From Paucimonas sp. (GTDB taxonomy: Bacteria > Pseudomonadota > Gammaproteobacteria > Burkholderiales > Burkholderiaceae_D): DNA of 32,000 bases. Of this stretch, positions 4,760 through 32,000 are shown in pieces; the first letter of the stretch is position 1; each line of letters begins with the position of its first letter. The DNA lies in assembly GCA_036677325.1 (NCBI GenBank), contig JAKFBY010000019.1:43289-75288 (forward strand), read 5' to 3'. The position numbers and the translations under genes were made by a program. A model generated the notes under the pieces. The model did not search any database. It had not been told where the DNA came from and saw only the letters and a list, made by a program, of their open reading frames with translations.

Positions 4760-5030
4760 GCTTTACCGATATGTCTGATTCGTCTACGTCATTGAAGCTG
4801 CCGGCACGCATGCTGCAAAGCCGCTTCAGAAGCGCGACACGGCCAGTATAGGCAGTTAGCTTAGCCAGTTCAATGTAGTCATTGATCGATCGAATCGATC
4901 CGGATAACGCTGTCGGGCAGCACCTGTTATAACGAAACGGCATACCGGTCATCAGATAAATAAAGCAGACAGAATCAAAAGGCCAGCTTATAGTGATTCT
5001 GTCTCCTCCAAATCTCAATGAATTGGATTT

Positions 5031-5063
5031 AGCCCGCACCGCAAGGTTTGCGGGCTTTTTTTT
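5031..5063 (+). terminator. rho-independent terminator-like hairpin plus T-run
   Basis: agcccgca (5031-5038) pairs with tgcgggct (5049-5056) and is followed by a run of 7 T. It lies about 270 nt downstream of the aroG stop with no convincing ORF in between. Confidence 0.6.
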
Positions 5064-13968: not shown

Positions 13969-14326
13969 GTCGCCTAATCTCACTTCCTTTTAAGAAAGCG
14001 CGGGATTTTGCGTCTTGTCAATTATGAGGCGTTCCCAGTGCAATTCTTGCCATGGCTACCTGATCTAAGAGTTGCATATGAAAATCGTAAGCATTTTGTA
14101 AAGCTTACTTTTCAGGTAAAGCTTGCGTTATTTTTTTGCCCATTTCACACAATTGCACTGTGGTAAGCCAGATCAGTCGATCTAGTGAGATGGGATCTTT
14201 TGGCGGGAAATAGGGGCGTGCAGTTGAAATGGCATGCTGTGTGGGCCACTTCACTTTTGTTGGTACAAAGGTTGCGTTGTAATTTTGACAGTGACAGTAC
14301 GTTCAGTCCAGCAAAGGGAGGAAGCG

Positions 14327-15262
14327 ATGAAGGCGACGCGGGTTGCAATTCTATCGTTGGGGTATTTATGCGCAATGGCCGTATACGCCGGCCAGCCCGA
14401 AGATGGCGCGCAGCAGACAAGTCAACCAGAAGAGCCGCTGGCTGACTATGACAGCATTGACTATAACGGGATTGACACCAATCCGACCTATTTTGCCTGG
14501 CAGGATGAGGTGGCTCCTAAAAAGGCAAATATCGCTGGTTTGCATTGGCAGTTCGACTCGGGTTTGCTCGACGGCGTGCACAAGATTGTTGGCTTTTGGC
14601 CCAGCGTGCACTGGCTGAATGCCAACAATTTTGGCACCAGCATGGCATCGCTGGGCTACACCTGGCGCAACTTGAAACTGGAAGGGGCTTTGTTCAGAGA
14701 GCGGGATGCGGAGCAACCACGCCATACCGAATTTCTCCGGCGCTATTCCACCGCCAAACGACTGTCGTACAAGTTTGGCTCGAACTGGGATTTTTATCTC
14801 AGTAGCCGTGCGCACAACAGCCCGGACCAACTGCGCCCGGACCTGAAGGTGCGCCGCAGGACAGCCGCGCTCGCTTACCATAATACGATTAATGGCAACC
14901 CATGGAATACGACGCTGGCAGTTGGGCGAGGTCGTGGTTTGTCAGGAAATTCCGGCACCATGTATCTGTTTGAATCGGCAATGCGTATTGGTCCAAAGCA
15001 CACTGTTTTCGGGCGCTTTGAACGAGCCGGCAATGATGAGCTATTCCGTGAGGAAGAGGCGTCGCGTCAGCGCAGCTATCAAGCCAATAAAATGACCATG
15101 GGCTATCTGTATGACGTGGCCAAGGTGGGCTCGGGCCGGCTCGGCATCGGCGGGCTGGTCAGCCGAAGGGCGGTGCCAGATGAACTGTTGCCTTACTATG
15201 GCAGTCGAAACACCTCGTATATGGTTTTTTTAAGGCTGCAGATGCAATTCGCCGCCAATTAA
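14327..15262 (+). CDS. exported hypothetical protein (possibly outer-membrane beta-rich)
   Basis: Start placed at ATG 14327 after AGGGAGGA. Signal peptide is MKATRVAILSLGYLCAMAVYA. The mature part has alternating aromatic/Gly-rich segments. No family recognised. Confidence 0.55.
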   Translation: MKATRVAILSLGYLCAMAVYAGQPEDGAQQTSQPEEPLADYDSIDYNGIDTNPTYFAWQDEVAPKKANIAGLHWQFDSGLLDGVHKIVGFWPSVHWLNANNFGTSMASLGYTWRNLKLEGALFRERDAEQPRHTEFLRRYSTAKRLSYKFGSNWDFYLSSRAHNSPDQLRPDLKVRRRTAALAYHNTINGNPWNTTLAVGRGRGLSGNSGTMYLFESAMRIGPKHTVFGRFERAGNDELFREEEASRQRSYQANKMTMGYLYDVAKVGSGRLGIGGLVSRRAVPDELLPYYGSRNTSYMVFLRLQMQFAAN

Positions 15263-24687: not shown

Positions 24688-25092
24688 TTAATGTGCGACT
24701 CGTTTCAGACCGTCTTTCAATAATTTCACATTGAAGTTAATTAATAACCCCAGTCTCATCCCCGTTAGTTTTAAATAGGTCATGAGTTGGGCATGATGGA
24801 TCGGAATCAGCTGTTCGACAGCTTTCAATTCAACAATGATGGAGTCCTCAATCACGAAATCGGCACGAAAGCCGCCATCGATCTTGATGCCATCGTAAAT
24901 AATTGGTAATTCCTTCTGCCGTTCAAATTTTATTTGATGCTTGCATAATTCGTGCGCCAGACATGCCTCATATGCACTTTCGAGCAAACCAGGCCCTAAT
25001 GCGCGATGAACGGAAAACGCACAATCCAGCAAGCGGCCGGATAATTCCTGATAAAGGATTTCTCCGTGGCCGCCGTGTTCGCCGTGGTTCAC
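24688..25092 (-). CDS. GxxExxY family protein (PD-(D/E)XK nuclease-fold, small)
   Basis: Start placed at GTG 25092, 6 nt after the prfB stop, giving 134 aa. It has the GLLESAY signature, DFVIEDSIIVELK (D...ExK-type), and a His/Gly-rich N-terminus VNHGEHGGHGE. The 229-aa ORF-track version overlaps prfB and is rejected. Confidence 0.72.
   Translation of the reverse strand: MNHGEHGGHGEILYQELSGRLLDCAFSVHRALGPGLLESAYEACLAHELCKHQIKFERQKELPIIYDGIKIDGGFRADFVIEDSIIVELKAVEQLIPIHHAQLMTYLKLTGMRLGLLINFNVKLLKDGLKRVAH
25062..25090 (-). repeat. right arm of the 29-nt inverted repeat (inside the 5' end of the GxxExxY CDS)
   Basis: The minus strand reads aaccacggcgaacacggcggccacggaga. Confidence 0.7.
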
Positions 25093-25097
25093 AAGAA

Positions 25098-26202
25098 TTA
25101 CACGCCCTGTTTCAGCGAGGCGGCGATAAAATCGTCCAGGTCGCCATCCAGCACGGCCTTGGTATTGCCGACTTCGAAGCCGGTGCGCAAATCCTTGATG
25201 CGCGACTGGTCCAGCACGTACGAGCGGATCTGGTGGCCCCAGCCGACGTCGGTCTTGGAGTCTTCCAGCTTTTGCTGCTCGCTCATCCGATTGCGCAATT
25301 CCAGTTCGTACAACTTGGCCTTCAGCATGTCCCAGGCTTCGGCACGGTTGCGGTGCTGGCTTCGGTCGTTCTGGCATTGCACCACAATGCCGGACGGCGC
25401 ATGCGTTAAGCGCACTGCCGAGTCGGTCTTGTTGATGTGCTGGCCGCCGGCGCCCGAGGCGCGGTAGGTATCGACCCGCACGTCAGCCGGATTGATGTCG
25501 ATCTCGATCGAATCATCGACTTCCGGATACACGAACAGGCTGCAAAACGAAGTGTGGCGGCCGTTGGCAGAATCGAACGGTGATTTGCGCACCAGCCGAT
25601 GCACGCCGGTCTCGGTGCGCAAAAAGCCGTATGCATAGTCGCCCTCGACCTTGATCGCGGCAGTCTTGATGCCGGCGATCTCGCCGTCGGACTGCTCCAG
25701 GATCTCGGCCTTGAAACCCTTGCGCTCGCAGTAGCGCAGGTATTGCCGCATGATCATCGAAGCCCAGTCCTGCGCCTCGGTGCCGCCGGCGCCGGCCGTA
25801 ATATCGATGAAGCAATTGTTGGGGTCCATCGGATTATTGAACATCCGGCGAAACTCCATGCCCTCGACCTGTTTTTTCAGGGCGTCGGCATCCTGCTCGA
25901 TCGCGACCAGCGTATCTTCATCCTGCTCTTCGCGCGCCATCTGGAACAGGTCGGAGGCGTCGCGCAGACCGGCTTCGATCTGCGTGAGCGACAGCACAAT
26001 GCCTTCCAGGGATTTCTTTTCGCGGCCGAGGTCCTGTGCCCGCTTCTGGTCGTTCCAGACGCCGGGATCTTCCAGTTCCGCGTTGACTTGCTCGAGTTTC
26101 TCTGACTTTGCTACGAAGTCAAAGATACCTCCGAAGTTCAACTTCGCGGGTGGTCAGGTCCGCCAGCAGGGCGGAAAGGGCGTTGAGGCGTTCTGCTTCC
26201 AT
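25098..26202 (-). CDS. prfB: peptide chain release factor 2, with programmed +1 ribosomal frameshift
   Basis: Frame 0 reads [27 protein letters not shown], then in-frame TGA (26119-26121). The +1 frame continues from GAC (26120-26118) into the 347-aa ORF, which has SPF and GGQ ([10 protein letters not shown]) motifs. Confidence 0.95.
26118..26133 (-). promoter_or_regulatory. prfB frameshift site: internal SD-like GGAGG plus slippery CUU UGA C
   Basis: The mRNA sense strand reads CGGAGGTATCTTTGAC. This has the same architecture as the E. coli prfB recoding site. Confidence 0.9.
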
Positions 26203-26235
26203 GATGGATTTTGTGTTTGTTCGGTGAAACCGAAC

Positions 26236-26265
26236 ATTATACCTGAGGGGCGGAGGAGATCTGAA
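26236..26265 (-). promoter_or_regulatory. possible prfB promoter (-10 TATAAT, weak -35 TTCAGA, 18-nt spacer)
   Basis: On the minus strand TATAAT is at 26241-26236 and TTCAGA at 26265-26260. A ttcggtgaaaccgaa hairpin lies in the presumed 5' UTR. Motif match only. Confidence 0.3.
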
Positions 26266-26405
26266 TGGGTGCAAGTTGTTATTTGGATAATCACCAACGA
26301 AGTGAAAGCTATATCTTGCGAAAATTCCGATTTGATTGCTAAATCGCACTTGTGTATGGACAATGGCGTTTTTGCTCCTTAAGTATGTTAATCGATTCGG
26401 TACCG

Positions 26406-27596
26406 ATGACCAAGAATCTCAGTTTTATTAGCTTATTTTCCGGCTGTGGTGGACTTGACGTTGGATTTGTCAAGTCTGGTTTTACATGCAAGCGCGCATT
26501 CGATATCGACAAGAATGTGGTTGACGTCCATCGGTTAAACCTTGGCGAATCAGCAGTTGTGGCTGACCTTACTACGATTTCCACGTCTGAACTTCTTTCG
26601 AATGGAAAACCTACAGTAGTAATCGCCGGTTCGCCATGCCAAGGTTTTTCAACGGCAGGGAAGCGCCGGTTTGACGATCCCCGCAATTCGCTACTTTTGC
26701 ACGCGGGTCGCTTAGCTCTAGAAATCAAGCCTAAGGTATTTGTTGCTGAGAACGTTTCAGGAGCATTGTCTGGCGAGCATAAAACATACTGGCATCAGCT
26801 AGAGGCACTTTTGCGTTCGGACGGATATTCGACTGTCACTTTACGGCTCAATGCTTCACAGCTCGGGCTAGCACAGCTTCGATCTAGGATATTTATGATC
26901 GCCTGGAAGGGATCGAAAAATCCGGATTTAAGTTGCCCCGAGACTCTTCCAAGAACGCTTGGTGAAGTATTGGATGGTGTCGATGGCCTACCTCAACACG
27001 ACGAACTTCCTCTCGCAAAAACTTCCGCTCACTACCTTATATCACGGCGCATTAAACCAGGGCAAAAACTGTGTAATGTGCGAGGTGGAACTTCATCTAT
27101 TCATACTTGGGATATTCCAGAAGTGTTTGGTAAAACTACCGAGCAGGAGCGGTTAATTTTGAAGGCAACGATGAAGCTCCGCCGCACTGAGCGGCTGAGA
27201 GACTTCGGTGACGCAGATCCGGTCTCTATGGAGTCCCTGCGTAGGGAGTTCGGATCGCGCGTTGGCATCTTAGTAGAAGGGCTTATAAGCAAGGGATATA
27301 TGCGACGTATTGAAGAGCGCTTCGATCTCGCGAACACTTTTAACGGCAAATATCGCCGCCTCGATTGGAATTCGGTATCCCTGACTGTTGATACCCGATT
27401 TGGAGATCCCCGGTACTTCTTACACCCGTCAAAACATCGTAGCTTTACCGTGCGGGAAGCAGCTCGTATCCAAGGATTCCCCGATTGGTTTGTATTTCCA
27501 GGGCGACCTGTTGACAGCTATCGGATGATAGGTAACGCAGTGGCGCCTCCAATGGCCCAGCATATCTCCAGTATTGTTAGAGGTCTGCTAACCTAA
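26406..27596 (+). CDS. DNA (cytosine-5)-methyltransferase
   Basis: Start chosen at ATG 26406 (MTKNLSFISLFSGCGGLDVGF). Motif I is FSGCGG, IV is GSPCQGFS, VI is VAENV, VIII is QLRSRIFMIA, IX is FTVREAARIQGFPD, and X is GNAVAPPMA. A variable TRD lies between VIII and IX. Confidence 0.92.
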   Translation: MTKNLSFISLFSGCGGLDVGFVKSGFTCKRAFDIDKNVVDVHRLNLGESAVVADLTTISTSELLSNGKPTVVIAGSPCQGFSTAGKRRFDDPRNSLLLHAGRLALEIKPKVFVAENVSGALSGEHKTYWHQLEALLRSDGYSTVTLRLNASQLGLAQLRSRIFMIAWKGSKNPDLSCPETLPRTLGEVLDGVDGLPQHDELPLAKTSAHYLISRRIKPGQKLCNVRGGTSSIHTWDIPEVFGKTTEQERLILKATMKLRRTERLRDFGDADPVSMESLRREFGSRVGILVEGLISKGYMRRIEERFDLANTFNGKYRRLDWNSVSLTVDTRFGDPRYFLHPSKHRSFTVREAARIQGFPDWFVFPGRPVDSYRMIGNAVAPPMAQHISSIVRGLLT

Positions 27597-27667: not shown

Positions 27668-28654
27668 ATGAGCATAATTAATGCATGGTCGACCTCTACG
27701 ATTGAACGTCAAAACACAACGTTCAAACTAAAACAATTGTACGAGCTACAAGCAATATTTTTGTTCGATCAATACGAGCCTGTTCTGGCGACTCCTGTTG
27801 AAGCGGCAATGCCATTTATAAATCGACTAGATCGCTGGCTGTCTTGTTTTGATGATCCCGATGATCAGTGGTCCGTGTTCCGCGCGTTTAAATATTTTTT
27901 CTTTATCGGAAAAGAAGAAACGGATGAGCTATATCGATGCGCGGTTAAGCATAAGCTCTTGCCTTGGTTGATTGAGCAAGAGGGGTTAGACATTTTTGAT
28001 TCAGACCTTTCTATGCGGCTCAATGATGTCGTTTCCCAGACTTGGCCGTGTCCAGTAACAGATAGCTTACGAATCAACAGCTTGTTGCACAGGACGCATT
28101 TAAAGGGACAAAGTCTAAGACCAGATTGGTTAAGTCTGAAGCAATTGGGCGACAAAGAGAAAATTGCTAGATATATCGCAAGCCGAAAGAATTCGAAAGA
28201 CGAGATAACCCCGATTAGATATCTCGTTTTGTTCGAGGATTTCGTCGGATCTGGCAGTCAGTGTGGGCGTGCAACGACGTTTGCCTTAGAGGCATTTGAT
28301 GGCCCAATTTTGTTAAGTCCATTAGTTGTTTGCCACCCCGGTGACGAACACCTCCGAGACCTTGCTTCTAAATCAAACGGTCGATTAACGTATGATCCTG
28401 TCGTAGTTCTTTCGGCTGAGTGCTTAGTCAGCGAAGTACCAGCTATTGGGGAGCCTTCTTCGTTTCCGTCTTTGCGGCTAGCGATACAAAACGGTTGTGC
28501 CAAAGGAGAATTCTCCGATCCTGCATTTGGATATGAGGGGGTGGGAAGCTTGGCTAGTTCATATAGCAACTGCCCAAACAATTCCCCGCCAATCTTCCAT
28601 GGAACTAGCGCCACTTGGCCGCATCCATTATTTCCACGAAAGGGGAGAGCTTAA
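27668..28654 (+). CDS. hypothetical protein with phosphoribosyltransferase-like (PRPP-loop) C-terminal half
   Basis: 328 aa from ATG 27668. IRYLVLFEDFVGSGSQCG (nt 28223-28261) resembles the type I PRTase PRPP-binding loop (four hydrophobic residues, two acidic residues, then a G/S/T-rich loop). The N-terminal ~190 aa are unassigned. The CDS itself is confident and the function is tentative. Confidence 0.6.
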   Translation: MSIINAWSTSTIERQNTTFKLKQLYELQAIFLFDQYEPVLATPVEAAMPFINRLDRWLSCFDDPDDQWSVFRAFKYFFFIGKEETDELYRCAVKHKLLPWLIEQEGLDIFDSDLSMRLNDVVSQTWPCPVTDSLRINSLLHRTHLKGQSLRPDWLSLKQLGDKEKIARYIASRKNSKDEITPIRYLVLFEDFVGSGSQCGRATTFALEAFDGPILLSPLVVCHPGDEHLRDLASKSNGRLTYDPVVVLSAECLVSEVPAIGEPSSFPSLRLAIQNGCAKGEFSDPAFGYEGVGSLASSYSNCPNNSPPIFHGTSATWPHPLFPRKGRA

Positions 28655-30675
28655 TGGTAGCGCTACGATTTGATAATCCGTTTCACGATCTTTGGGTAAC
28701 TGAAATTTTGGAATCGAACGCATTTGTTCAAATGTTCAGCCCTTTGCTTGTTGCAGACGCGGAAGAGCTATTCTCGAGCGGTCACGTCGTCGTTCGCGGT
28801 CGTCAAGGAAGCGGCAAGAGCATGTTGCTGAACCTTTTGGAGACGTCCACTCGGGTTGCATACGCAAATAATAGTAGAACAGAATTCCCAGCCCCACCCA
28901 AGCAGCGCACTTTCATATCTGCTGGAGTTCAGCTCACCAAGGAAAGCGCATCACTTGTCGCTGCTAGGGCAGAAGAACTCCCTGAAGACCAGCGCACAAA
29001 ATTAGTTGCGGCAAATTTTGCTGACTATCTAAATTCTTTGTTGTCGTCAGACCTTATACGAAATATATTGTACTTGGCAGCAGAGCAAGCTAAGAATTCC
29101 GCAATAATTCCTGAAGTGTCTGTCGACCTAAGTACTAATACTCAACAACGCTTCATTGATCTCTTGTACCAAGCAGAGGCTTGGAAAGGTTTTGTGCCAA
29201 AAGGGCTGCAGAGCCTAATGGACATTGGAACCGCGCTAGAGGGGCGAATTCGCTCCTACAAGAGCTATTTTAACTTTCAAACAGATGAGTTTCCTCGAGA
29301 GCTAGCAGTTTCACGCTCACCTGCAGGTGAGCCCATGGCGGAGCTAGCAGGTGCACTTCGTGACTCAGGTGTCTTGCCAAAGAACACGCTAGTACTCCTC
29401 AGGATCGATCAGCATGAGGAACTGTTTGAACTTGAGCGCCACACCAATCTTGGAACGGTCTTCCGTCAAGTGATCAACTCGGCACTTGCCAAGCGAGATC
29501 CTCGCGTAGCGTATCGTATTGGTACGAGACATTACGCATGGGATCGAGATGTAACCGCGTGGGGCAGTGGCGCCCCGTTAGAGGCGATGCGTGATTACAG
29601 CATTATCGACTTGGATCAAATTCTAAAGAGGGGAGAGCACACTAAAAGGTGGAAATTTCCTCTCTTTGCGGCAGACGTTGTAAGTAAACGTCTTGAGGCC
29701 GCGGGATTAAGGTTCCAGGGCAACTCTATGGAAATAATGTTTGGTAAGTCCTTGGAGCCAGCTGATAGAGCTAGGAGATATGTCGGCGACGCGAAATGCG
29801 CTCTTCAATTTGAAGCTGCCTGGGCGCCTGCGTGGAAAACGTATATAGAGAAACTCTGGAATGACGGTGATCCATTAGAAGCAAAATTCGGTGAGGTATG
29901 GCTGCGCCAGCAGGCACAAAAAAGACATAACGTTTCAAGCGATGGGACTCTGGCACATGATGCTCCATGGCGAAATAGTAAATGGTGGGCAAAAGAGCGA
30001 AACGAGATCGCGCTTATGCAACTTGCTGGCTTACGCCAGCAAGCACTAATTTGGTGTGGTGAACGCCAAATTATCGATTTGTCCGGTCACAACATCTTGG
30101 CGTTCATGACGATCTGCAAGTCAGTTTGGGCAACTTGGCAACGCCGCAATCCGGCAGATGCTGAAAAACGTGCAGCGCTACCAAATTTTTCAGTGGAAGA
30201 TCAAGTCATCGGTATTTCCGAAGCAAGTCAAATATGGTTTAAGAAGATCCAAGTTGGCCTCGAAGCGAACCAACGAACTCGCTTGGTAAGTGGGCTAGGC
30301 CAGTGGTTCAGGCGTCGAATGCTACGCGATCGGGCACTTTCGTATCCAGGTCACTCTGGATTTAGTTTGCTCGAAAGTGAGCTGTCTTCAGACCATTTTC
30401 TCGTGCCCATAATAAAGGCATGTCGAGACCATGGGGATTTAATGGAGTCGCAGCACACAACTAAGGAGAAAAACCAAGCCCAGCGCCTAAAGTGGTATCT
30501 ACATCCCTTGCTATGTCCTCTTTTTCGAATCCCGCACATTCGAACCAAGGAGCCAATCTACACATCGCTACATGAGCTTCAGGAAATTTACAATAACCAA
30601 CGACGGGCTGGGCCGACTGCGGATGGACCGATAAAGACGGAGTCAGAAGGTCAACTAGGCCTCCCTGGCTTTTAG
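28654..30675 (+). CDS. P-loop NTPase (AAA+/ORC-Cdc6- or STAND-like), 673 aa
   Basis: ATG 28654 overlaps the upstream TAA (TAATG) and follows AGGGGAGAG. Walker A is GRQGSGKS (28798-28821) and a Walker B-like motif is TLVLLRIDQHEE. The long helical C-terminal region has no nuclease motif I can recognise. Confidence 0.8.
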   Translation: MVALRFDNPFHDLWVTEILESNAFVQMFSPLLVADAEELFSSGHVVVRGRQGSGKSMLLNLLETSTRVAYANNSRTEFPAPPKQRTFISAGVQLTKESASLVAARAEELPEDQRTKLVAANFADYLNSLLSSDLIRNILYLAAEQAKNSAIIPEVSVDLSTNTQQRFIDLLYQAEAWKGFVPKGLQSLMDIGTALEGRIRSYKSYFNFQTDEFPRELAVSRSPAGEPMAELAGALRDSGVLPKNTLVLLRIDQHEELFELERHTNLGTVFRQVINSALAKRDPRVAYRIGTRHYAWDRDVTAWGSGAPLEAMRDYSIIDLDQILKRGEHTKRWKFPLFAADVVSKRLEAAGLRFQGNSMEIMFGKSLEPADRARRYVGDAKCALQFEAAWAPAWKTYIEKLWNDGDPLEAKFGEVWLRQQAQKRHNVSSDGTLAHDAPWRNSKWWAKERNEIALMQLAGLRQQALIWCGERQIIDLSGHNILAFMTICKSVWATWQRRNPADAEKRAALPNFSVEDQVIGISEASQIWFKKIQVGLEANQRTRLVSGLGQWFRRRMLRDRALSYPGHSGFSLLESELSSDHFLVPIIKACRDHGDLMESQHTTKEKNQAQRLKWYLHPLLCPLFRIPHIRTKEPIYTSLHELQEIYNNQRRAGPTADGPIKTESEGQLGLPGF

Positions 30676-30686
30676 GCGCGCATAAA

Positions 30687-31676
30687 ATGAGTATCAAACC
30701 GTGGGGATCTATTGATTGGTTGTTGCCGCGAACGAAGATACAGTCGTGGCATTTGATTACTTCTTCGTCTTTCGAGGAACGCTGTGCTGGTGTTTTGCAG
30801 CGTTTGCAGTCCAGCGAATTCAAGCTGTTGTCGACGACTCTATTACGTTTAACGAATCCACCTTCCGATTTCTGGACAGAAGCACAGCCTGCTATTAATA
30901 AAAATGTGGAGGAACTTCATTCTTTATTAGGTCAAGTTTCTGTTAACACGGTGGAAGGCAATTTGTTGGCTATGCCCAGTTCGCTTGTGCGATCGTCATC
31001 CCTTAATCCTGACAACTGTGAATCTGTAATTTTAGATATCACGACTATCCCTAAACGTTTCTTTCTGTTCGCGATGCAGCAGCTAATGCGCTCTGAAACA
31101 GTCAAAAATTTAGTAGTTACATATACGAAAGCTAAAGAATATCCGGAGGCCGCTTTATGCGAAAACGCGCTTCCTCCAACTGCACTTCAAGGATTTGTTC
31201 GCATGTCTGCTACTAAAGAAAGTTCGAGGTTGATCGTCGGAGTTGGTTATATGCCGCTTAGCGTTGAGGAAATTGTCGAGCAGGCGAAGAACACGAAATT
31301 AGACTTTATTTTCCCGTTTCCTCCTGCATCTCCGGCATTTCGTAGAAATTGGGATCTTCTATCGATGCTGATGCCTACGGACCCTCCACGCAATACCGAA
31401 ATTCACCGTGTACACGGAATGGACGCGTTTGAGATCTGCGAGCGTGTGAGGGCGTGGGGTGAGACTCGAGACTTGGATTTGTTGCCATTGGGCCCAAAAC
31501 CTCATGCACTTGGCATGGCTATGGCAGCTATGCGATTGGACGGCCGCGCTGAGGTTTTGTATTCGCAGCCGCAGGCTTATAGGCCAAACTATTCAACGGG
31601 TGTGGCGGTCGATTCGTCCGGACAACCGCAGATATCGGCTTATTGCCTAAAGCTAAATGGTCGTGATCAATTTTGA
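30687..31676 (+). CDS. hypothetical protein with Rossmann-like/CARF-like sequence signatures
   Basis: 329 aa, starting 11 nt after the NTPase stop. WHLITSSSFEE has a strand ending in S/T. SVILDITTIPKRFFLFAM fits [DN]x[ST]xxx[RK]. A second similar element is DLLPLGPKPHALGMAMAA. Confidence 0.7.
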   Translation: MSIKPWGSIDWLLPRTKIQSWHLITSSSFEERCAGVLQRLQSSEFKLLSTTLLRLTNPPSDFWTEAQPAINKNVEELHSLLGQVSVNTVEGNLLAMPSSLVRSSSLNPDNCESVILDITTIPKRFFLFAMQQLMRSETVKNLVVTYTKAKEYPEAALCENALPPTALQGFVRMSATKESSRLIVGVGYMPLSVEEIVEQAKNTKLDFIFPFPPASPAFRRNWDLLSMLMPTDPPRNTEIHRVHGMDAFEICERVRAWGETRDLDLLPLGPKPHALGMAMAAMRLDGRAEVLYSQPQAYRPNYSTGVAVDSSGQPQISAYCLKLNGRDQF

Positions 31677-31820: not shown

Positions 31821-32000
31821 TCACTCCCTTAAAAAAACATGCTCTTGATGCCATTTGATGAACTCAATCTCTGGCCTGAATTTTTCAGGCAATGCAATCA
31901 TCTTTCCTTCGATTCCTGATAACCATTCGGAAGAAAAAAGATTGCTTTTCCCCATTTCGATTTCTTTGGATACCTGCACCTTCAATTCGGTGGTTATAGT
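31821..32000 (-). CDS. partial ORF entering from the right edge (C-terminal 59 aa), unknown function
   Basis: An open frame from the window edge to TGA at 31821-31823 reads ...EIEMGKSNLFSSEWLSGIEGKMIALPEKFRPEIEFIKWHQEHVFLRE. It is AT-rich like the cassette. Truncated and unrecognised. Confidence 0.3.
   Translation of the reverse strand, partial: TITTELKVQVSKEIEMGKSNLFSSEWLSGIEGKMIALPEKFRPEIEFIKWHQEHVFLRE

Follow-up and report, generated by a model that had tools for sequence, protein, structure and literature searches.

A phosphoribosyltransferase-like relative of the Retron-Eco11 effector as the probable effector of a four-gene cassette with a DNA methyltransferase in Paucimonas

Results

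A four-gene cassette at the locus

We describe a phosphoribosyltransferase (PRTase)-like protein, and the four-gene cassette to which it belongs, in a 32,000-nucleotide stretch of the genome of a Paucimonas species (contig JAKFBY010000019.1; the whole of this stretch is called the window below). The protein, encoded on the forward strand at 27668-28654, is almost certainly a PRTase-CE homologue of the PRTase-like effectors of retrons, and it is probably itself the effector of a defence-type cassette. Its gene is the second of four co-directional, closely packed genes (26406-27596, 27668-28654, 28654-30675 and 30687-31676) that together occupy ~5.3 kb. The features on which the argument is built, including the putative loop for phosphoribosyl pyrophosphate (PRPP), are the following.

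26406..27596 (+): C5 cytosine DNA methyltransferase (MTase), 396 amino acids (aa), first gene of the cassette, proposed to be self-marking (PF00145, E 1.3e-58; TIGR00675 dcm)
27668..28654 (+): PRTase-CE family phosphoribosyltransferase-like protein, 328 aa, proposed effector (PF24390, structural model and hhalign)
28223..28261 (+): PRPP-binding-loop motif LVLFEDFVGSGSQ, residues 186-198, codons read directly
28529..28588 (+): Gx14PNNxP motif, G288 ... P303-N304-N305-S-P307, a signature of retron-type PRTase-like effectors
28654..30675 (+): ORC/Cdc6-like P-loop ATPase, 673 aa, proposed sensor or switch (PF24389, E 3.6e-39, residues 50-646)
30687..31676 (+): tandem CARF-like Rossmannoid protein, 329 aa, proposed ligand-sensing regulator (PADLOC CARF6)

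Family and fold of the PRTase-like protein

The frame at 27668-28654 is open and stop-free, and its 328-aa product was called independently, with an identical protein sequence, on a public metagenome contig (L083; Logan SRR17380414). The protein matches the PRTase-CE profile PF24390 at 83.1 bits against a cutoff of 27 (E 3.7e-23), with residues 54-324 aligned to the complete profile (1-253 of 253), and the same domain is present in all 120 homologues listed. The family is, hence, one that already has a name in Pfam. Further, the PADLOC models for retron PRTases of type III-A match the protein over nearly their full length (E 4.4e-13), among viral models, the top-ranking one is annotated as “PRTase-CE domain-containing protein” and comes from a Siphoviridae metagenome-assembled genome (MAG), and the NCBIfam model DS32_1 for an anti-phage PRTase-like protein aligns weakly, with the C-terminal 34 residues only (E 6e-4, 19 bits against a cutoff of 250). 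The protein ends four residues past the PRTase-CE domain. No DNA-binding domain was found in the 328 aa, of which Pfam assigns 54-324 to PRTase-CE alone.

An AlphaFold2 model built from 98 homologues (mean predicted local distance difference test score, pLDDT, 96.3; predicted template modelling score, pTM, 0.92) places the protein among the type I PRTases. Specifically, DSSP assigns strands at 78-80, 125-129, 185-193, 214-222, 240-248 and 296-298, with helices on their flanks, and the result is an alpha/beta core with a parallel sheet, as is characteristic of that fold. In a Foldseek search of the PDB, nearly all of the top ~40 matches were type I PRTases (UPRT 1xtt and 3g6w, OPRT, HGPRT and APRT), with probabilities of up to 1.0, identities of 8-15% and template modelling (TM) scores of ~0.3-0.47; the top 50 held these classical enzymes and a few unrelated folds, and no other solved structure. 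A profile search of PDB sequences with the PRTase alignment returned no PRTase and a single spurious match (0.86), no member of the family having been solved. Canonical PRTases were also sought in the fetched loci and in the window for a profile alignment, and none was present there.

The putative PRPP loop lies at the end of strand 185-193. Codons 28223-28261 read L186-V-L-F-E190-D191-F-V-G194-S-G196-S-Q198, and in the model, this strand leads through a loop (194-196) into a helix (197-209), after which comes a further strand at 214-222 (PILLSPLVVC). The stretch YLVLF-ED-FV-GSGSQ thereby has the layout of the classical PRPP motif: a hydrophobic strand, two acidic residues and a phosphate loop of small residues at the N-terminus of a helix. 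None of the 74 cassette copies deviates at E190, D191, F192, G194, G196 or Q198. As judged from these alignments, the motif is real and under strong selection rather than a chance match, because six of its residues are invariant despite a mean pairwise identity of only 33%. A conserved CP[VI]TDS[LM]RIN loop after strand 125-129 could be the pyrophosphate loop. Toward the C-terminus, G288, N301 and P303 of the second motif region are invariant in alignment A1, and N301 and N305 are invariant in the 74 cassette copies.

These results bear directly on the initial annotation of the window, made from the sequence alone, which had read residues encoded at 28223-28261 as a type I PRTase PRPP-binding loop followed by a predicted strand, beside a DNA methyltransferase gene. 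The PRTase fold on which that reading depended does appear, both in the 83-bit PF24390 match and among the Foldseek neighbours, the predicted strand corresponds to 214-222 of the model, and the neighbouring gene is a methyltransferase at E 1.3e-58. Its remark that no motif can be recognised in the N-terminal ~190 aa holds only in part, given that the Pfam domain already starts at residue 54 and that the PRTase fold thus begins far upstream of the loop. Residues 1-122 form a helical module that contains the invariant W57 and W100 and that is also aligned in the retron effector. The description of the locus as a PRTase fold in a restriction-like operon likewise stands only in part: the fold is there, but the operon holds no nuclease and so, strictly speaking, does not resemble a restriction system.

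Relationship to the Retron-Eco11 effector

The initial annotation had pointed to PRTase-like modules in some retron types, and correctly so; the closest characterised relative of the window protein is the effector of Retron-Eco11. This is a type III-A3 retron with a PRTase-like effector that carries the PRPP motif VVILTDTIGSGNQ and a retron-specific Gx14PNNxP motif, and in which changing 152TDTIGSG158 to AATIAAA abolishes defence (PMC12746101). The phage helicases UvsW and D10 activate the Eco11 effector, which then becomes toxic, with PRPP down by ~50% (PMC12746101).

We recovered the Eco11 effector gene from E. coli by means of a published primer sequence (locus L082, where it is truncated by an IS3-family insertion sequence (IS) at codon ~290), and its product matches PF24390 at 1.2e-28. 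A profile-profile alignment (hhalign) of the window clade with this effector covers the whole PRTase-CE domain, with a probability of 97.1% and an E-value of 5.4e-11. It pairs IRYLVLFEDFVGSGSQ of the window protein with IRKVVILTDTIGSGNQ, the PRPP motif of Eco11, so that the ED-GSGS segment, the placement of which on a functional element had been in question, maps to a functional PRPP loop and to a motif that is experimentally essential in the retron. The alignment also pairs other segments: the second motif of the window protein aligns with GMPNNAP of the Eco11 effector, FGYEGVGSLASSYSNCPNNSPPI...W.HPLFPR is paired with FGYGGVAALICYSHGMPNNAPAI...W.KPLF, and the N-terminal RLDRWLSCFDD is paired with RATLWLEQFDE.

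PRTase-CE genes broken by IS3-family elements were observed at three loci (L066, 6448-8636; L081, 4001-6488; L082, 3001-5489). The first of these, from a Cellvibrionaceae MAG, is the single cassette copy with a PRTase gene split in this way, and in both E. coli genomes with the Eco11-type effector, the element is inserted near codon 290, where the PRTase part gives way to the winged-helix part. Such repeated disruption may fit selection against a costly or toxic PRTase effector.

Partner proteins

The MTase gene opens with an ATG at 26406, its product soon reaches an FSGCGG motif, and the same 396-aa protein is called on L083. Its catalytic PCQ and ENV motifs are kept in 72-73 of 74 copies, and the window MTase scores well against the PADLOC DruM and DrmMII models. 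The ATPase start codon overlaps the PRTase stop codon (TAATG), with the 673-aa product again called on L083, and the Walker A residues G65, G67 and K68 as well as D265-Q266-x-E268 are invariant in 74 of 74 copies; a PDB profile search with the ATPase alignment gave P-loop matches only and no further relative. Because these MTase and ATPase motifs are kept in essentially all copies, all of the enzymatic parts of the cassette look active, as far as conserved residues can tell.

The fourth protein has no Pfam family and no fused effector domain, and it matches the PADLOC model PDLC01923 (CARF6--CARF_CARF_CARF) over its full length at E 3.8e-56. Its AlphaFold2 model (pLDDT 89.9) shows two tandem six-stranded alpha/beta (Rossmann-like) domains, the first with strands at 20-27, 46-56, 85-92, 113-117, 141-147 and 149-151. 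Foldseek aligned this model with tandem universal stress proteins (1e-6), with the related C-terminal domains of cation-chloride transporters, with the CARF domain of Cam1, and with Can1 (6sce_A), which had the best query TM-score in the list (0.47). Can1 is a type III CRISPR nuclease that is activated by cyclic oligoadenylate. A CARF-type fold alone is not exclusive, because tandem universal stress protein folds are also found. In addition to the fold, however, D117-I-T-T-L-P-K123, which follows strand 113-117, fits the CARF signature [DN]X[ST]XXX[RK] (PMC4012209), with D117 and K123 invariant and S28 nearly so, and the second domain has an invariant K271 after its own strand 4. These are the hallmarks of the CARF superfamily. 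Neither Pfam nor PADLOC detects a nuclease, a pore or a toxic domain in the MTase, the ATPase or the CARF-like protein.

Cassette architecture and distribution

A scan of one genome for each of 185,579 species turned up 90 relatives, and the analysis retained 80 of them. In 73 of these 80 loci, the order is MTase, PRTase-CE, ORC-like ATPase and CARF-like protein, on one strand and with overlapping or abutting open reading frames (ORFs); the remaining seven mostly lack a gene where the available sequence ends. In 79 of the 80, the gene that immediately precedes the PRTase gene is that of the MTase. No fifth gene is conserved across the loci, where integrase is the commonest flanking family (7 loci), nor do the immediate neighbours include a common nuclease partner.

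Pairwise identities co-vary among the PRTase, ATPase and CARF-like proteins (r = 0.79-0.86) and between these and the MTase (0.64-0.70). Taken together, the sequence comparisons support a four-gene cassette that is inherited as a working unit, in which the linkage to the MTase is fixed and not incidental. In two metagenomic proteins, parts of adjacent cassette genes appear to be joined: P0194 (448 aa) combines PRTase-CE with the N-terminus of the ORC-CDC6-like protein, and P0278 (336 aa) combines the C-terminus of a C5 methylase with PRTase-CE. These are either true fusions or gene-call artefacts and were not used as Rosetta-stone evidence.

The cassette occurs in ~0.05% of species, spread patchily over ~15 phyla. 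Its hosts include Alpha-, Beta- and Gammaproteobacteria, Bacteroidota, Verrucomicrobiota, Planctomycetota, Acidobacteriota, Chloroflexota, Actinomycetota, Armatimonadota, Nitrospinota, Desulfobacterota, Kiritimatiellia, Binatia, a Saccharibacterium and the archaeon Nitrosocosmicus, and the closest relatives of the window cassette are in Herbaspirillum and Paraburkholderia. In a full-library profile search, 270 of 1.84 billion clusters at 50% identity matched at E <= 1e-30, 481 at E <= 1e-10 and 2090 at E <= 1e-3.

Genomic setting and neighbouring features

Upstream of the cassette, and through the rest of the window, lies ordinary chromosome, with genes for an aroG-type DAHP synthase, uvrB, the isc operon, lysS and prfB. 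The G+C content is ~0.47 at the cassette versus ~0.57 in the adjacent prfB-lysS region. At its other side, the cassette sits in a defence and toxin-antitoxin island that runs past the end of the window (31821-32000 on the minus strand; 6054-9973 on L083), because it is followed directly downstream by a convergent gene for an HNH_2 nuclease, then by a Fic/DUF4172 gene and by a toxin-antitoxin pair of the Phd/YefM-ParE type. The HNH_2 gene is not conserved beside the cassette at other loci.

The flanks vary between relatives. A cassette of 86% identity elsewhere has other neighbours, namely, a radical SAM gene and a NERD/SLFN-like helicase, and the immediate neighbours across 73 loci comprise integrases, transposases, helix-turn-helix regulators, Fic/SoFic, type I restriction subunits, AbiEii, PtuB, PD-T7-1 and housekeeping genes; IS elements, type I restriction endonucleases, HNH and ParE genes are also seen in the flanks. 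In four loci, a ThyX gene (PF02511) lies ~80 bp from the cassette (L014, 11936-12928; L017, 11840-12844; L023, 11864-12868; and one more), which may mean that related Alphaproteobacteria have an insertion site in common or may point to a link to nucleotide metabolism. In four loci, a gene for the very-short-patch repair endonuclease Vsr, expected beside C5 methylases, is found near the cassette.

Several features elsewhere in the window are recorded here for completeness. The prfB gene (release factor 2) shows, at 26100-26349 on the minus strand, the classical programmed +1 frameshift: a short N-terminal ORF (26119-26349) ends in ...RRYL-stop, and the strand reads GGAGGTATCTTTGAC, with a Shine-Dalgarno-like element and then CTT TGA C ahead of the main ORF (25098-26141). 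Between lysS and prfB, at 24688-25377 on the minus strand, lies a small gene of the PD-(D/E)XK_3 nuclease family (PF13366, E 3.2e-43), which is probably much shorter than the listed 229 aa, because only the C-terminal ~117 aa match. Positions 5000-5063 (+) match the Rfam family “Betaproteobacteria toxic small RNA” (RF02278; 59.9 bits, with the gathering score at 50), which, like the closest cassette relatives in Herbaspirillum and Paraburkholderia, points to a probable betaproteobacterial host. A 342-aa ORF at 14234-15262 (+), between a gene of the uracil-DNA glycosylase superfamily and the isc operon, has no Pfam match at E <= 0.001.

Discussion

Proposed mechanism

Our results point to a composite model, which we think somewhat likelier to be right than wrong, in which a catalytically competent PRTase-CE protein is the effector of a self-contained, horizontally mobile, four-gene cassette of the defence type. 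The assignment of the effector role to the PRTase, the part of this model that we regard as probable, is made because it is the only cassette protein with a plausible toxic activity and because the nearest relative to have been characterised acts as a stand-alone effector, turning toxic once its sensor is triggered. In this scheme, the methylase would mark the host's own DNA, and the ORC/Cdc6-like ATPase, gated by the CARF-like ligand sensor, would detect foreign, presumably unmethylated, DNA or a nucleotide cue derived from infection; the invaders would be phages or plasmids. A ligand-gated ATPase switch is suggested because the ATPase and CARF-like proteins co-evolve most tightly and because pairings of CARF with AAA+ modules are known elsewhere, as in RtcR and the STK-AAA-CARF fusions (PMC4012209). 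An ATP-driven change of state in the ATPase would then release the activity of PRTase-CE, which would bind PRPP through its ED-x-x-GSG-x-Q loop and consume it by hydrolysis or by transfer to an acceptor. The ensuing collapse of the nucleotide supply could halt replication of the invader and lead to growth arrest or abortive infection. Depletion of PRPP as the toxic act itself, proposed by analogy with Retron-Eco11, we hold at a little under even chances, and the self-mark that would keep the ORC-like ATPase from firing on host DNA is the weakest step of the scheme.

A more elaborate version of this model ties the partners together further, and we advance it only tentatively. Here, the ORC-like ATPase would read the methylation of incoming DNA, the CARF-like protein, in a cassette with no cyclic-oligonucleotide synthase, would sense a nucleotide derived from PRPP or from infection, and the two together would license a PRTase that destroys PRPP or turns it into a nucleotide with a toxic or signalling role.

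Several observations weigh against the effector model or parts of it. On the structural side, the classical PRTase profile PF00156 (Pribosyltran) is unmatched even at E <= 1, and the Foldseek E-values to PRTases are weak (3.7e-3), with a TM-score of ~0.45 on the target. As for the chemistry, the PRPP drop upon activation of Eco11 is a modest ~50% (P = 0.04; PMC12746101), and no acceptor substrate has been identified for defence PRTases, even for ShosT (PMC11961720). The methylase poses a further difficulty: the model leaves without explanation why a metabolic effector should need one, no methylation-reading domain was identified in the cassette proteins, and the self-mark step does not account for a Litorimonas MAG (L036, 6000-11929) in which PRTase-CE, ORC-like and CARF-like genes stand without a methylase. 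Upstream of this last locus, on the other strand, are the housekeeping genes DM13, GDPD, RNase E/G and Maf, and either its MTase is encoded elsewhere or the three-gene core is viable without one. A tblastn search of 72,556 plasmids and 50,697 phages found no copy of the cassette. Finally, the ATPase matches no defence model in PADLOC v2 or NCBIfam (2026), and the four-gene cassette has no named system, system model or experiment in these collections or in the searchable literature.

Alternative readings

Other roles for the PRTase can be drawn from the same partners. It might be a maker of signals, joining PRPP to a base or metabolite to give an unusual nucleotide for the CARF-like protein, with the ATPase as executor, which might, for instance, clamp DNA or block it. 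In favour of this role, neither a cyclase nor any other synthase of messengers is encoded in the cassette, nucleotides are the natural products of PRTases, the CARF-like protein has both a nucleotide-binding signature with invariant D117 and K123 and the invariant K271, and no function has been assigned to the C-terminal ~340 aa of the ATPase. We nonetheless consider this role unlikely, given that the PRTase-CE protein of the only characterised homologue is itself the toxic effector, with no CARF protein present, and that the CARF-like protein here has no effector domain to activate in a cassette in which no killing domain is detectable. Quite unlikely, in our judgement, is that the PRTase acts on DNA itself, cleaving or exchanging N-glycosidic bonds at unmethylated cytosines while 5-methylcytosine protects self, in a nuclease-free analogue of restriction-modification (R-M) or in DNA hypermodification. 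Such an activity would explain the near-obligatory MTase (79 of 80 loci), the DNA-oriented ORC/Cdc6-like partner and the absent nuclease, and it would be in keeping with the N-glycosidic chemistry of PRTases, for which the physiological acceptor in defence is not identified. It is opposed by the retron homologues, which work without an MTase and change PRPP upon activation, by the conserved loop, which is the 5-phosphate/ribose-binding PRPP loop typical of enzymes that use free PRPP, and by a 328-aa protein that has no DNA-binding domain; literature searches found no precedent.

The function of the cassette as a whole can also be read differently. We give a similarly low probability to its being no anti-phage system at all, and instead a selfish addiction or epigenetic module, with the PRTase toxin set free when the methylase is lost (post-segregational killing), or else a unit for regulated methylation that plays no part against invaders. 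A self-contained cassette with a patchy, mobile spread, integrase and IS neighbours, and the occasional disruption of effector genes by IS elements would suit such a module; plasmids and phages are, however, where addiction modules would be expected, and no copy was found on those searched above. Moreover, the effector family and the CARF-like sensor are typical of immune systems, many neighbours are bona fide defence genes, and addiction overlaps with the effector model in practice, in that R-M systems do both. Very unlikely is a role as a scaffold or ligand sensor that has the PRTase fold and binds PRPP or a nucleotide without turning it over, or as an ordinary PRTase of nucleotide salvage. 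The missing PF00156 match and a similarity to enzymatic PRTases that is confined to the fold (8-15% identity) might be taken in its favour, as might ShosT, which binds PRPP without detectable transfer to common purines (PMC11961720). Yet the acidic pair and the phosphate loop are absolutely conserved over ~15 phyla, which is to be expected of a catalyst; retron defence, moreover, depends on the homologous motif, and activation there lowers PRPP. A housekeeping salvage PRTase was rejected on distribution and gene context, because an occurrence in ~0.05% of species and the constant association with the MTase, ATPase and CARF-like genes are incompatible with housekeeping.

Significance

PRTase effectors are an emerging and poorly understood immune output, found in type III retrons, ShosTA, PsyrTA and Ophion. 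Should the PRTase-CE protein be the effector, as we favour, the cassette would offer the same effector domain as a small stand-alone protein with three separable partners, that is, a clean genetic and biochemical system in which to address what keeps a PRTase effector inactive, what activates it and how it acts on PRPP. If methylation is the self mark, epigenetic discrimination could drive a metabolic, abortive-type response instead of DNA cleavage, and CARF-like domains would gain a role outside cyclic-oligoadenylate signalling. A methylation-reading, CARF-licensed PRTase, if true, would be the first link of DNA methylation, CARF sensing and PRPP chemistry and would define a new immune class. 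The cassette is absent from current catalogues of defence systems, and automated annotation will, therefore, miss it. Even so, the neighbourhood has likely been noticed computationally before, because the CARF-like family is in a census carried by PADLOC and the ATPase and PRTase families have consecutive Pfam accessions (PF24389 and PF24390), which suggests that the two were curated together.

Comparison with known systems

The protein shares with the classical type I PRTases of family PF00156 (UPRT, OPRT, HGPRT and APRT) the parallel-strand alpha/beta core and a hydrophobic strand with two acidic residues, followed by a small-residue loop at the N-terminus of a helix. Unlike them, it has an extra N-terminal helical module of ~120 aa, the C-terminal PNNxP and W..PLFPR motifs and a non-metabolic gene context. 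The likeness to the Retron-Eco11 effector is far closer, in that the two have in common the Pfam family PF24390, a variant PRPP motif (h-h-h-h-x-D-x-x-GSG-x-Q), Gx14PNNxP and an N-terminal “R..WL..F” helix, and in both systems, the PRTase is tied to a nucleic-acid-handling module. The acidic pair is E-D in the window protein versus T-D in Eco11. The window locus differs from the retron in having no reverse transcriptase and no msr/msd RNA, and a search of the window with Rfam yielded only one tRNA and one small RNA, with no retron noncoding RNA; its partners are the C5 MTase, the ORC/Cdc6-like ATPase and the CARF-like protein in place of the retron parts. The window protein also lacks the C-terminal winged-helix domain and the YYPxxLRxx tail of the Eco11 effector (PMC12746101). 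An identity as a retron effector was rejected on these grounds: reverse transcriptase, noncoding RNA, winged helix-turn-helix and C-terminal peptide are all missing, and the partners are methylase, ATPase and CARF-like protein in 73 of 80 loci.

Defence effectors with a PRTase domain are recognised in retron III, ShosTA, PsyrTA and Ophion, and in ShosT, PsyrT and OpnC of Ophion, as proposed here, a PRTase-fold protein is the toxic or essential enzyme of an anti-phage system. The PRTase is the toxic part of ShosTA, and a crystal structure of ShosT shows PRPP bound by way of its three PRPP loops (PMC11961720). OpnC is required in Ophion, and its acceptor is not identified (bioRxiv 2025.09.30.679545). 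The settings differ from that of the window cassette: the PRTase of ShosT is fused to a pyrophosphatase-like domain and belongs to a toxin-antitoxin pair, that of Ophion is paired with radical-SAM and PHP enzymes, and ShosTA, PsyrTA and Ophion are all without an MTase, an ORC-like ATPase or a CARF-like partner. The initial annotation knew of no experimentally defined PRTase linked to an MTase, with which our literature and database searches agree.

From the side of the methylase, the nearest parallels are BREX, DISARM, Druantia type II and R-M systems, which likewise join a dedicated DNA methylase to large ATPases within a mobile cassette. The window cassette encodes no PglZ, helicase, PLD or restriction nuclease; its output would be a PRTase, it includes a CARF-like sensor, and it matches none of the definitions of these systems. 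A classical R-M system was rejected, there being no nuclease in the four proteins (Pfam and PADLOC) or shared among the neighbours. The family of the fourth gene, in turn, has itself already been catalogued computationally, as the “CARF6” group of the CARF/SAVED census in PADLOC-DB. The novelty is, hence, in the system and not in the fold, in that an effector of a known family is here connected with a methylase, an ORC-like ATPase and a CARF-like sensor.

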